NCBI GenBank assembly: GCA_965223705.1
Contig: OZ245015.1
Location: 288,001-352,000 of the forward strand
DNA from: Myxococcota bacterium
GTDB taxonomy: Bacteria > Myxococcota_A > UBA9160 > UBA6930
DNA: 64,000 bases
Direction of reading: 5' to 3'
The notes under the pieces were generated by a model. It was given only the letters and a program-made list of their open reading frames with translations, was not told the origin of the DNA and searched no databases. Below, in pieces: positions 13,194-24,685 of this stretch; position 1 is the stretch's first letter, and the number at the start of each line of letters is the position of its first letter. The position numbers and the translations under genes are program-made.

Positions 13194-14918
13194 CTAGGCG
13201 CTGCGCACGACGCCACCGGGGCGGGCCCCCGTCGTTTGCCCGTGCTCTTGCACCGCTTGCCCTGAGACGTACGTCGCGACGTAACCCTTCGCGGTTTGCA
13301 TCAAGCGCGGCATACCGGCCGGGAGATCGGCGATGACGTGCGGGTGATCGACGTGAAGCGCATCGAAATCGATCAAGTTGATGTCGGCCTTCGCGCCCGC
13401 AACGAGGGTCCCTCGATCGTTCAAGCCGAAGAGCTTCGCGTTGTCGCTCGTCAGCTTCTTGACCACGAACTCGAGCGGCATGTGGTACGGGTGATCGGCG
13501 TCGAAGTCGCGCACCCAGTGCGTCAGCATGTAGGTGTGGATGCTCGCGTCGATGACCTGTCGCACGTGGGCGCCGGCATCGGATAAGCCCAAAACGGCAA
13601 TGTCGTCGCGGATCATTTCCGCCATCGCGTCGGAATTGCCTTCGACGTAGTTCACGACGGAATACATCAAGAACGTGTCGCCGTCGTTCGCGAGCATCAT
13701 GTCGTACGCGACCTCCCGCGGATCGCGGTTCTCGCGCGCCGCGATCTTCGCCACGGAATCGTTCGTGTCCGGCGTGTACGAGAGCTTCTCGCCCATCAGG
13801 TACGTGCTCTCCCACACCGTCGGGCTGTTGTAGATCAGCGACATGCCGGTGGTGTTGGGATCTTTTTCGGAGAGCAGGGTTCGCTTGAGTTCCGGATCGC
13901 GCAGCCGCGCGATTTTTCCCGAGAGGGGAAGACCTTTCAGCGGCGCGAAGCTCGGTAGATACTCGAACGGATTGTCGCCTTGGAAGCTGAACAGGATCGA
14001 GGGCGGGCGCGCGGCCACTTGCGGAACGAGCGTTACGCCGTCGGCCCGCGCCGTGCGACAGATCTCGAGCTGCTCGCGCCACTGGCTCGAATCGAGTCCG
14101 TGCTGAAGCAGCAGGAAGACCAACGGCACGCCGGTCGCGCGCGCAATGCGCTCCATGAGCCGCGTCTCTTCGAGAAGCGCGTCCGATTCGCCCGCGATGC
14201 CGTTCGGCACCATCTCGAAGACGCCGCGGCCCGAGTCTTTGACCGCTTGTGCGAGCCCGATCAGCTCGTCTTCGCTCGCGTACGTGCCCGGTACCGGCTC
14301 GCCGTCGATCCCACAATGAATAAGGGTTCGAGAGGACGAGAAGCCAAGCGCCCCGGCGTTCATCGAGTCGCGAACCACGCCCGCCATCTTCGCGATGTCA
14401 GCCGGCGTCGCTTCTTCGTTGCGAGCACCGCGATCGCCCATCACGTAGGCGCGAACGGCGCCGTGGGCGATCATCGCGCCCACATCGAGTGTGCGCGGCA
14501 GGCGTCCGAGGGAGTCCAAGTACTCGCCGAAGCTCTCCCAATCCCAGGGCATGCCTTCCGCCAGGGCCTTGCCGGGGATGTCTTCCACGCCTTCCATCAG
14601 GCCGATCAACCATTCGTGCCGATCCGGGGTCGCCGGGGCGAAGCCGACTCCGCAGTTGCCCATGACGACCGTCGAAACGCCGTGCCAGACCGAAGGCGCC
14701 ATATCGGCGTCCCAGGTCGCTTGGCCGTCGTAGTGGGTGTGGATGTCGACCCATCCCGGTGTCACCAGCAGACCGTCCGCATCGATGGTTTGCCGCGCAT
14801 CGCCCAGATCGCGGCCGATCGCTGCGATTTTGCCGTCGGCGACGGCGACGTCCGCTGTGCTCGGGGGGGCGCCGGTGCCATCGACCACGGTTCCAGCGCG
14901 CAAGATGAGATCGTGCAT
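13194..14918 (-). CDS. N-acyl-D-amino-acid deacylase-family amidohydrolase
   Basis: PGWVDIHTHYDGQ, VVMGNCGVGFAP, LSDAGAHV. ATG 14918 preceded by GGAGG. Confidence 0.88.
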   Translation of the reverse strand: MHDLILRAGTVVDGTGAPPSTADVAVADGKIAAIGRDLGDARQTIDADGLLVTPGWVDIHTHYDGQATWDADMAPSVWHGVSTVVMGNCGVGFAPATPDRHEWLIGLMEGVEDIPGKALAEGMPWDWESFGEYLDSLGRLPRTLDVGAMIAHGAVRAYVMGDRGARNEEATPADIAKMAGVVRDSMNAGALGFSSSRTLIHCGIDGEPVPGTYASEDELIGLAQAVKDSGRGVFEMVPNGIAGESDALLEETRLMERIARATGVPLVFLLLQHGLDSSQWREQLEICRTARADGVTLVPQVAARPPSILFSFQGDNPFEYLPSFAPLKGLPLSGKIARLRDPELKRTLLSEKDPNTTGMSLIYNSPTVWESTYLMGEKLSYTPDTNDSVAKIAARENRDPREVAYDMMLANDGDTFLMYSVVNYVEGNSDAMAEMIRDDIAVLGLSDAGAHVRQVIDASIHTYMLTHWVRDFDADHPYHMPLEFVVKKLTSDNAKLFGLNDRGTLVAGAKADINLIDFDALHVDHPHVIADLPAGMPRLMQTAKGYVATYVSGQAVQEHGQTTGARPGGVVRSA

Positions 14919-14965
14919 AATGGCCTCCCTGGGAACGTCCCCAGGGTACCGCACGGAGGCTCCTC

Positions 14966-15496
14966 GTGGTCACACTCGCGGTCTGGATCTTCATCGCCGC
15001 CTCGTTGATCGGCGTCTTCGACATCATCTACTTCCATTTGTTGAAGTACCGCCTCTACGCGCACGAAGACTCGCGGGTAGAACATTGGGCCCACACCGTG
15101 CGGATGTTCTGGCAGGTTCCGCTCGTCTATCTCGTGTTTGCCCGAAACGTCGGCGGCGAGCTTCTTTGGCTGGCGGTCGCCGTGGTGGCGATCGACATCG
15201 CGATCGAGGCCTGGGACCTCGTCGTCGAGCACGGAAGCCGCGAAAGTCTCGGTGGGCTCGGCCGCGCCGAGTACCTGATCCACATGTATTCGACGATGGG
15301 CCGCGCGGCGAGCTTCGCGCTGATCTTCGGCGCGAAACCGTTGGGCGGTTGGACCTCGATCGCGCCTCACACGCTCCCGACGGACTATCCGGTCATCGCG
15401 TCGGTCGCCGCCGGGCTCTTTATTCCGTCGGCCTTCGCGATCGCCCTGATCCACGTGTGGCTCTTGCAACCCCGCTACCGCGAGGTGACGTCATGA
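14966..15496 (+). CDS. Uncharacterised membrane protein
   Basis: TM helices carrying D/H/E residues (FDIIYFH, EHWAH, EYLIH); GGAGG RBS. Confidence 0.7.
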   Translation: MVTLAVWIFIAASLIGVFDIIYFHLLKYRLYAHEDSRVEHWAHTVRMFWQVPLVYLVFARNVGGELLWLAVAVVAIDIAIEAWDLVVEHGSRESLGGLGRAEYLIHMYSTMGRAASFALIFGAKPLGGWTSIAPHTLPTDYPVIASVAAGLFIPSAFAIALIHVWLLQPRYREVTS

Positions 15497-15533: not shown

Positions 15534-16646
15534 TCAGCCCGTTTCGGGCTCGTGTTGGAACTGTGCGTAGATCTCCAAGAGCCCGGGGATCATCGCGACG
15601 CCCCAGGCTCCGAGGGCGAGCAGAACCCAATGCGTCGGTAGCAGCGCGAACGCCGCAACCCACGCAGCGACGAAGAGCGCGACCCGTCGCATCATCTTCC
15701 CGGAGTTCGCCGACGGCCTGTCGCCCGGCCGCCCGAGCGGGAACGCTTTCGGTCGCAAGAACCAGCCGTGCGCGAGCAGGAGAAGCAAGAAGTGCGGCCA
15801 GGAAAGCTCGTTTCCCGAGAGGACCGGGTTTTCGTCGAGCGGCGATTCGGCACCGTCGGCGAGACGCGCCTGCAATGCTTCCCAGGTGTACGTCGGGTCC
15901 GGTCGACCGCCCGCGCCGGACATGTTGTCGCGCGTCGGTCGGCAACGCCATCGGTAGAGGGGGCGGCCATCTTTCGCGAGGCCGAGGACCGCCGGTTGGT
16001 AGTAGCCCTTCGGATGACTCGCCCACGGACGGGAGCGCAAGTGCCCGTAGTTCTCGTTCGCGTAGATTTCGACGAGGCCCCGCTCGCGGCATATCTCGAG
16101 AATCTCGTGATGCGGGTCGCCGACGGCCGGGAAGCCGAATTCCCAGTCTTCCTCGGCTTCCGTCGCCAGATGCTGTGGTTCGCTCGTGATGGCGAAGACT
16201 TCGCCGCCCGCTTCGCGGATCTTGTCGACGACTCCGGACTTTCGGTAGCTCCGCAACTCGAAGCGACACGGAGGTCACCAGCGACCTCGGTAGAAGAGAA
16301 GGAGAATGAAGTTGTAGCGCTCGAGCTGAGCGTCGATCCACGTATGGCGGACACCCCGCGGAGGATCGAGTAGGGCGGGGATGGTTTCCGTCGGGTCCGC
16401 CTGAACAGCTTCCACTGAGAAGCCCGACCCGTTCGGCGTAACGCAAACTTGCTCGCGCAGGCACTGTTCGCCTTCGCAGAGGATCACACCGAATTCTCGC
16501 GGCTCACCCGGCGCGGCGGAAAGTGCGGTGGCCGTGTCGACGACGCCCGTCAGTCGAAACGCCGTGCCGCGCGTATCGTTCAACCACTGAACCGCGGCAG
16601 AAGCCGCCGGTTCGAGTGCTTTCGGGATTCCCTCGGGCTCGCCCAT
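15534..16646 (-). CDS. Predicted selenoprotein: AhpC/TSA-like redoxin with UxxC, extra N-terminal domain and C-terminal TM helices (370 aa; TGA at 16277-16275)
   Basis: ORFs 16275-16646 and 15534-16256 are in the same frame, separated only by TGA. They join as LLFYRGRW-U-PPCRFEL, followed by GGEVFAITSE, FPAVGDP and QPAVL. Confidence 0.85.
16239..16263 (-). promoter_or_regulatory. Candidate bacterial SECIS for the TGA at 16277
   Basis: mRNA +12 to +36 after UGA: lower stem UUCG/CGAA, AC bulge, upper stem AGUU/AGCU, apical loop GCGG. Confidence 0.55.
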
Positions 16647-16682: not shown

Positions 16683-17237
16683 CTAGTGGTGCTCTTGTAA
16701 GAACTTTGCGATGGCGCGTCCCGCCGCCAAGGCCGCGCGCTCCTCCGGGTCTTCCCAGGTCTTCTTGATGTTGCTGTTCCATCCGACGGGTCCGCCAGCC
16801 TCGAAGCTTTGGGTGTGGACGGAGCTCGCGGTCGCTTGGAACTTGCCCAGGATTTTGTCGCCGCTGGGATCTCGCAAAACGCAGTGCACTTCGATTTCCG
16901 CTTCGCCTCCCGCGCCGAGAATGCGCCGGGTCCGGTTCGCCGGAACGAAACGCGGGATACGAAGCTCGAGAAGAAGCGCGCCATCGCGCGCCTTGCCGTC
17001 CGTTTCGACGAGCGAGAACTCGCCTGTGGGATCGAGGGTTTTCTTTGTGGCCGAAGCGACCGCGACGGCGCGGCTGCGCTTCTCTTCTGCGCGGTCCATG
17101 ACGCGAAACACGAGCTTGTCGTAGTCCGCGACCGACGGATCGAGCGGCGCCGCGGATTCGAGCTTGCTCGGGGAGATGCAGCCCGTGAGAGCCGCGGCGC
17201 TCAGCAACGAAAACGCGAGAAAGAGACGGCGGTGCAT
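16683..17237 (-). CDS. Lipoprotein (DUF4410-like)
   Basis: MHRRLFLAFSLLSAAALTG-C lipobox, RRILGAGG motif and AAGGAG RBS. Confidence 0.7.
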   Translation of the reverse strand: MHRRLFLAFSLLSAAALTGCISPSKLESAAPLDPSVADYDKLVFRVMDRAEEKRSRAVAVASATKKTLDPTGEFSLVETDGKARDGALLLELRIPRFVPANRTRRILGAGGEAEIEVHCVLRDPSGDKILGKFQATASSVHTQSFEAGGPVGWNSNIKKTWEDPEERAALAAGRAIAKFLQEHH

Positions 17238-17480
17238 CAAGGCTCCTTGCAGGGAGGATGTCCGATCCTTCGGAGAGGGCCACGAACCCCTTGAGTAAGG
17301 CGACGATCTGCTGCCATCTCTCGTATTGGGTGGGTTTTCGCCCCAAGAGCCGGCAAGTTCATCATCGGCGGACCTTCTTCTTGCTGGGGCTCGCAGGCTT
17401 GAGCCACGCCGGTCGCCGGCGACCGCGCCTGAGTTGAAGAAGGTCCGCCCGAACACTACGCCCGGGCGGACCTCTCCTCG

Positions 17481-24590: not shown

Positions 24591-24663
24591 GGGCCCTTAG
24601 CTCAGTGGTTAGAGCAACCGGCTCATAACCGGACGGTCCCTGGTTCGAGTCCAGGAGGGCCCA
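24591..24663 (+). tRNA. ileX: tRNA-Ile2 (CAU anticodon, lysidine-modified type)
   Basis: Acceptor stem GGGCCCT/AGGGCCC, D arm GCTCAGTGGTTAGAGC, anticodon loop CTCATAA, T loop TTCGAGT. Resembles the ileX type; followed by CCG rather than CCA. Confidence 0.9.
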
Positions 24664-24685
24664 CCGCTAACGGACTGATCCTTCC

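Follow-up and report, generated by a model that had tools for sequence, protein, structure and literature searches.

A predicted membrane-anchored, peroxiredoxin-like selenoprotein with a putative cystatin-fold domain in a Myxococcota genome

As candidate selenoenzymes, peroxiredoxin-like (Prx-like) proteins in which selenocysteine (Sec, U) opens a UxxC motif belong to an enzyme class that has been predicted for twenty years. Members of the subfamily treated here are already deposited: a supplement to the 2005 Sargasso Sea survey contains, in the part covered here, AACY01098150, entered with U as 'Prx-like' and carrying the same motif (PMC1088965), and in Dataset S1 of the 2008 GOS study at least five reads with U under the heading 'Prx-like 1' are recognisable by eye as belonging to the subfamily (Zhang and Gladyshev, PMC2398784). 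These are JCVI_READ_1056998, which has the N-terminal domain, 1092258038443, which has the C-terminal helices, and 3057796, 1091121311012 and 1091140598399. The heading shares UPPC and pfam00578 with the protein described below, and lumps its subfamily with 225 varied UxxC sequences; the 'Prx-like 1' proteins in the covered part of that dataset are mostly short and single-domain, whereas the protein described here is built of three parts, and the fusion section and Figure S1 of the same paper describe neither its N-terminal domain nor its membrane hairpin. A 2026 prokaryotic catalogue includes in its Table 1 a Prx-like UxxC/UxxU thiol:disulfide oxidoreductase (PF00578) 'predicted with high confidence', which has domain and motif in common with our protein, and no entry of the present architecture was found in the sections covered (PMC13188914). 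The main text of BSepDB gave no keyword match, and its database and supplements may list the family (PMC13326102). In the part of the source covered (PMC12938796), PGFS is a Prx-like enzyme whose CxxC serves to reduce an endoperoxide, and deiodinases are described as membrane-bound Prx-like selenoenzymes in the covered part of another (PMC11592359).

An earlier note on the window (the whole stretch of 64,000 nucleotides analysed here, from a Myxococcota genome) had proposed, from the letters alone, that two adjoining open reading frames hide a single selenoprotein gene of unrecognised architecture. By examining the reading frame, its homologs, the RNA hairpin that follows the TGA and the predicted structure of the product, we conclude that the two apparent genes are very likely one gene, whose internal TGA would be read as Sec. 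To the whole explanation, in which this one selenoprotein gene would encode a cytoplasm-facing, membrane-anchored oxidoreductase cycling at U124-C127, we give a probability of about 0.8. The novelty is modest: the family itself is not new, given the 2005 and 2008 'Prx-like' deposits, while no description of the cystatin-fold domain, or of an architecture in these three parts, turned up in the literature searched. Outside subscription journals, a literature search for cystatin together with selenoprotein and thioredoxin fold in bacteria found nothing.

One reading frame across an internal TGA

The gene runs in one frame of 370 codons on the minus strand, from 16646 to 15534 (Table 1), and translates into 123 residues ahead of an in-frame TGA and 246 residues beyond it, up to a closing TGA; the sole internal TGA is codon 124 (16277-16275). 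The translation confirms that two ORFs share a frame and are joined by one TGA, with the junction LLFYRGRW-TGA-PPCRFELR beginning exactly as first noted (LLFYRGRW-TGA-PPC). The ATG start fits the homologs, most of which start 118-135 codons ahead of the TGA. Placement of the TGA at an AhpC/TSA redox motif, with the thioredoxin fold continuing downstream, is likewise borne out, as the Pfam AhpC-TSA model (PF00578) spans it (residues 112-183, E 1.4e-8, 35.2 bits against a cut-off of 26) and the predicted fold covers residues 98-266. Contigs of three public runs, from one study that is possibly the source of this DNA, cover codon 124 with zero differing letters.

Table 1. Positions in the window of the selenoprotein gene, its parts and neighbouring features
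Feature	Position	Strand	Basis
Whole coding sequence, 370 aa, Sec at 124	15534..16646	-	ATG start, TGA stop; translated frame
N-terminal domain (about residues 1-83), helix on four-stranded sheet, predicted cystatin fold	16398..16646	-	AlphaFold2, structural match and profile search
Invariant Cys57 and Cys62, facing strands of predicted beta-hairpin	16461..16478	-	47/47 complete loci
Peroxiredoxin-like thioredoxin-fold domain (about residues 98-266), with family-specific insertion ending HPKGY	15849..16355	-	PF00578; structural matches; profile match
In-frame TGA, presumed Sec124, first position of U-P-P-C	16275..16277	-	TGA 52/53, TGT 1/53 loci
Cys127, putative resolving cysteine	16266..16268	-	47/47 loci
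Hairpin of bacterial SECIS type, upper stem of 6 bp, loop AGUUG at the apex (16258-16254), 16 nt after UGA	16243..16270	-	fold -10.7 kcal/mol; covariation
Invariant Pro218, thioredoxin cis-Pro position	15993..15995	-	47/47 loci; TxxU peroxiredoxins of the same genome have Arg here
Short helix of hydrophobic residues (283-293) that may lie in the membrane	15768..15800	-	AlphaFold2; F286, G294, F296 invariant
C-terminal hydrophobic helical hairpin (315-363), hinge invariant Pro337, probable anchor	15558..15704	-	helices H315-335, H338-363
DUF4410-like ORF	16683-17456	-	E 2e-4; selenoprotein gene follows after 36 nt, same strand
Hydrophobic 176-aa ORF, convergent	14966-15496	+	no Pfam match
Amidohydrolase	13194-14954	-	
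tRNA-Met	24591-24665	+	

The family is filed nearly everywhere as two hypothetical proteins, a systematic annotation error that the present reading corrects. As the earlier note had foreseen of annotation pipelines, 118 of the 120 best database matches begin after the Sec codon, at positions 131-153 (the other two are Cys forms), and nine of nine matches to the first ORF stop at the Trp just before the TGA. The accompanying remark that the downstream ORF lacks a convincing start holds only in part: a TTG at 16256 is callable and is used by databases (P0002, 240 aa), but it sits within the SECIS hairpin, past the active site.

Across 53 distinct family loci, the window's included, codon 124 is TGA in 52 and TGT in one, with both sides of it conserved; in this set duplicates were merged and four loci lacking coverage of the codon were dropped (L040, L079 and L080, which are partial, and L054, which has an assembly gap there). 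A first set of 32 loci, of which 31 cover the codon, had TGA in 31/31, 22 of them being this family and the rest small paralogs. Mean identity among family loci is 35% in the N-terminal domain, 54% in the catalytic part and 40% in the C-terminal part.

Bacterial SECIS elements, in the description covered here, have a loop of 3-9 nt with a G in its first two positions, an upper stem of 4-16 bp, a spacing of 16-37 nt and a folding energy of at most -7.5 kcal/mol (PMC13188914); the hairpin that follows codon 124, with a 5-nt loop AGUUG, 6 bp, 16 nt and -10.7 kcal/mol, agrees with that description on all four counts. Its folding energy by itself is ordinary (z -0.92, and z 0.25 for an 81-nt stretch). 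Among 22 aligned loci the stem is paired in 99.4% of 176 cells, two pairs are altered on both sides in 19 cells, and 0/500 shuffles reach the observed pairing, a figure that is no probability, and counts that overstate the statistics, since the loci are related and not independent; all slid controls lie far lower. The compensatory changes shift the protein in step (F/S, R/G, L/G and S/S-G pairs); in this unusually clean SECIS, the identity of two residues of the protein is visibly set by the pairing of the stem. Codon choice is skewed as well: the Leu codon of the loop is TTG or TTA in 53/53 loci, whereas these two account for 8% of the Leu codons in the rest of these genes, and the codon of Cys127 is TGT in 47/53, against 26% elsewhere. 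At the level of sequence, the covariation pattern matches the prediction of Sec recoding.

The single Cys (TGT) locus, L084 (G420:C321, protein P0043), has a mismatch in its 6-bp core stem, as no other locus does; its genome retains selA, and on the tree it is placed within a TGA clade, beside L029. We read it as a case in which Sec has naturally reverted to Cys and the SECIS is decaying, and a hairpin that breaks in a lineage reverted to Cys offers a ready test case for SECIS models.

A search of the window's genome (G000) for selA/selB/selC/selD found them all, with selA, selB and selD above curated cut-offs and a tRNA-Sec of anticodon UCA. TGA conservation, SECIS and sel genes together support the reading as a UxxC redoxin selenoprotein, and none of the circumstances named beforehand as contrary to it (Cys in all homologs with a unique TGA, unlinked halves, no Sec machinery) holds. 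Counted by eye, selA is present in 63 of 65 family-bearing genomes, but with 200 of the 225 genomes of the class having it, its presence does not set the family-bearing ones apart; the two family-bearing genomes from which it is absent, G008 and G428, are 85% and 88% complete.

Three-part architecture of the product

The AlphaFold2 model, built on a 22-row alignment, has a mean pLDDT of 83. Residues 98-266 find their best structural matches among peroxiredoxins, including BcpB (Z 13.5, rmsd 2.7, 137 aligned), which score slightly above human PGFS/PRXL2B (Z 12.3, rmsd 2.7, 126 aligned, residues 98-263 only), and a shared fold shows no substrate. The profile match to 11 small YRGxWUPxC Prx-like redoxins is 99.5%, and 22/22 family rows match AhpC-TSA (pfam00578), so that with its UxxC the protein falls under the definition of Prx-like 1, or Prx-like thiol:disulfide oxidoreductase.

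Two neighbouring assignments were considered and rejected. Despite the structural likeness to BCP/PrxQ, AhpE and AhpC, the protein is not a true peroxiredoxin, because Sec stands first in its motif (YRGRWUPPC, with no PxxxT/SxxC(U) motif) and Pro218 occupies the position of the catalytic Arg; in an alignment with paralogs of the same genome, Pro218 falls opposite the Arg of TxxU/TxxC proteins, which we take from their motifs to be peroxiredoxins, and opposite the Pro of thiol-disulfide oxidoreductases. The SelL-related model NF040769 gave 12.4 bits against a curated cut-off of 120; it is the best NCBIfam hit (E 4.9e-6, best of 22 rows), and no model of that collection reaches its cut-off. PRXL2B/PGFS (FAM213B, prostamide-prostaglandin F synthase) resembles the protein in its fold, which is Prx-like, in its CxxC with a conserved Arg directly ahead of the motif, and in having Pro in the place of the cis-Pro; it differs in having Cys instead of Sec and in an identity of 12%.

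The C-terminal hydrophobic anchor proposed in the earlier note finds support: the model has helices 283-293, 315-335 and 338-363 in this part, the last two forming the hairpin, and hydropathy peaks at 1.7-2.4 in 22/22 rows. Charges are nearly absent inside the hairpin, the mean number of K+R being 5.2 before it, 0.3 within and 2.1 after. Inspection by eye shows no signal peptide, and there are basic residues on either side of the hairpin, so both ends of the protein appear to be cytoplasmic; given its moderate hydropathy and short helices, the hairpin might be re-entrant and not cross the membrane. The protein is likely, as judged from its sequence, a membrane-anchored, cytoplasm-facing selenol/thiol oxidoreductase.

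For the N-terminal domain, which had been flagged as of unrecognised kind, structure prediction suggests a candidate kinship. Folded alone it reaches an AlphaFold2 pLDDT of 84, with one helix over a four-stranded sheet, and a wide structural search with residues 8-83 places tarocystatin on top (Z 9.3, rmsd 2.5, 73 aligned), cystatin-superfamily folds occupying most of the top 20 rows (Z 9.3, 8.8 and 8.3 for phytocystatins, latexin and cathelin), a match by one method whose Z is only moderately over background. Foldseek returned nothing at E 0.001 or better, with cystatins recurring among its weak rows. The fold predicted for the domain is that of cystatins, with the topology of the cystatin superfamily at an identity of 10-19%; no link to cystatins at the sequence level emerged from Pfam, PDB profile search or protein profile search. 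Pfam has no family for it, the PDB profile search gave two matches, of E 0.4 and 0.8 only, and the ESM Atlas gave three unnamed clusters of 122-123 aa (0.78-0.81). A profile of the domain searched against 1.84 billion proteins yielded 171 matches; of 150 listed, 30 end at FYRGxW, one reads through with Cys and 119 are without the motif. Those of 100-500 residues that were looked at are, few exceptions aside, fragments, frameshifts or chimeras of the family, with no convincing case of a second architecture among the matches listed, and by this sequence survey the domain appears family-specific, found only here.

The C-x4-C-x5-C pattern pointed out earlier is present in this sequence, but its third Cys (position 68) occurs in only 1/22 aligned rows and is no family feature; invariant are Cys57 and Cys62, on predicted strands E50-58 and E61-72, spaced by x4 in 39 and by x8 in 8 of the 47 loci used for residue conservation (6/53 being omitted as incomplete or broken). 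The linker to the catalytic domain (residues 86-93) has a pLDDT under 50.

Candidate mechanism and alternative readings

We hypothesize that U124-C127 alternates, as the enzyme turns over, from a free selenol/thiol pair to a selenium-sulfur bond and back. The starting point is read from the sequence: one frame with a conserved TGA, a covarying hairpin and complete Sec machinery; SelB almost certainly binds the hairpin, and Sec would be inserted. The predicted thioredoxin fold would set UPPC where the first helix begins and would give Pro218 the place of the cis-Pro. The selenolate of U124 would then, with high probability, attack an oxidised substrate, Cys127 resolving the adduct to a selenenylsulfide that a cytoplasmic reductant would restore, and the C-terminal hairpin probably tethers the enzyme to the cytoplasmic membrane at its inner face. 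Our tentative candidate for the substrate, by analogy with PRXL2B/PGFS, is a membrane-associated peroxide of hydrophobic character, either a hydroperoxide or an endoperoxide; it is favoured over a protein disulfide, which we think unlikely, because of the anchor and the PGFS likeness. The Cys57-Cys62 pair might hand electrons to the active site, a doubtful step suggested by the invariance of the pair in a seemingly cytoplasmic domain; alternatively, the N-terminal domain would bind substrate or partner. The N-terminal domain of DsbD, which exchanges with its own thioredoxin domain, offers an analogy for such a relay, and if the pair were redox-active, a cystatin fold would be used in electron transfer, of which we found no description. 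That the whole makes up a distinct, unnamed selenoenzyme subfamily, its cystatin fold serving as an internal relay that re-reduces U124-C127 while the enzyme clears lipid peroxides of the inner membrane, is an argument by analogy that we consider rather improbable in this full form.

The nearest alternatives keep the selenoprotein and change its partner or the role of its N-terminal part. In one of them the protein would act, as reductase or isomerase, on the disulfides of a specific partner protein in the membrane, in the manner of TlpA/ResA, with the cystatin-fold domain selecting that partner. UxxC with Pro at the cis-Pro position is the signature of thiol-disulfide exchange, structural matches to ResA/TlpA reach Z 9-11 with a weak profile match in 15/22 rows (best E 7e-4), and cystatin folds often bind proteins; against this, peroxiredoxin-type structures score higher (Z 13.5), no partner gene is conserved among the 53 loci, and ResA/TlpA are anchored at the N-terminus and face outward, whereas the anchor here is C-terminal, all of which leaves the disulfide reductase an unlikely reading. 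It is easier to credit, if still short of probable, that Cys57-Cys62 forms a structural disulfide or a metal site, the catalytic domain working alone and the protein perhaps facing the periplasm. Both Cys lie on facing strands of a predicted hairpin, the usual site of structural disulfides, and the N-terminal domain is attached by a low-confidence linker; but no signal peptide is visible, the charge pattern suggests that both ends are cytoplasmic, and a purely structural disulfide is unlikely in the cytoplasm.

Other readings depart further from the oxidoreductase that we favour. A deiodinase-like reductive dehalogenase of halogenated aromatics would likewise be a Prx-like selenoenzyme of the membrane-bound kind, as deiodinases are in the covered part of PMC11592359; U-P-P is common to both, and T4_deiodinase is the label of the top ESM Atlas neighbours (score 0.84), no more than a lead. 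Yet the profile-profile match to 14 bacterial deiodinase-like proteins is 5.3%, against the 99.5% for the Prx-like redoxins, PF00837 is matched by 0/22 members at E 0.1, the S-x-T-U and E-x-H relay residues given in the literature covered are missing (RGxWU here, with Gln at position 158 in 43/47 and His in 3/47), so we hold this reading to be highly improbable. The 50 structural matches listed include no deiodinase, which says little either way. Cystatins fill the top structural ranks for the N-terminal domain, which might suggest a working cysteine-protease inhibitor; the inhibitory first hairpin loop of cystatins is QxVxG in the part of the source covered (PMC2784779), but 0/47 members have it and that loop bears a variable insertion, making inhibition still less credible. 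The least credible reading of all takes the TGA as a true stop, the locus then encoding a pair of distinct proteins or being a pseudogene or the result of faulty sequencing. Databases do keep the halves apart, and L028 (G043), L075 (G310) and L081 (G164), which are pseudogenes or assembly errors, have extra stops or a break downstream of the Sec codon; but a stop would sever the fold at its active site just ahead of a covarying SECIS, the codon is TGA across a bacterial class and never TAA or TAG, and the Cys homologs P0043 and P0216 read through at codon 124.

Distribution and genomic context

Matches occur in 26 of the 61 related genomes searched. The family is present in 65/225 genomes of the bacterial class and in 22/301 genomes drawn from the phylum, all 22 of them inside the same class; those relatives that bear a name come from MAGs of Myxococcota and Myxococcales and from marine Gammaproteobacteria. 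The genomes G141, G411, G414, G443 and G454 carry three or four divergent copies each. In a FastTree built from the C-terminal part and rooted at the midpoint, the gene described here falls, with support of 0.98, among sequences of Gammaproteobacteria and a few of Myxococcota (L053, L064, P0056, P0067, P0079 and P0147 were compared with it), apart from the homologs in its own family, to which it is only 40-50% identical; the placement may reflect transfer or old paralogy. P0005, P0123 and P0124, which cluster with P0122 (Gammaproteobacteria), read through with Cys at 124, lose Cys127 to an apparent short frameshift after it and are without the C-terminal hairpin, while their close kin P0122 and P0125 terminate at the Trp preceding the codon; judging by sequence, the former are possibly a decaying allele.

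No conserved neighbour points to substrate or reductant, the largest cluster shared among flanks (mostly of 1.5 kb) comprising 3/53 loci. The promoter scan gave 0 sites, and four terminator-like sites were observed against 2.5 expected. Elsewhere in the genome, the selD match (L018, G000:C1:22501-23403) has no TGA inside and lies within a 736-aa open frame, with selB about 2.3 kb after it; such a frame would be consistent with an Ndh-SelD fusion of Cys type, as reported in the covered part of PMC2398784.

Deiodinase-like selenoproteins (L125-L139) were found in 10/31 related genomes, 14 of 15 matches having an in-frame TGA in GSYTUPPF, and none was found in G000. The window's genome appears, on its sequence, to be rich in selenoproteins: nine of its 20 AhpC/TSA matches have an in-frame TGA, each at the redox motif. 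The eight further TGA-bearing genes of AhpC/TSA type, all on G000:C1 (L105, L106, L108, L111, L113, L114, L115 and L119), include one of UGC type, three peroxiredoxins with TxxU and, at 4397692-4398066, a UxxU protein in which TGA occurs twice.
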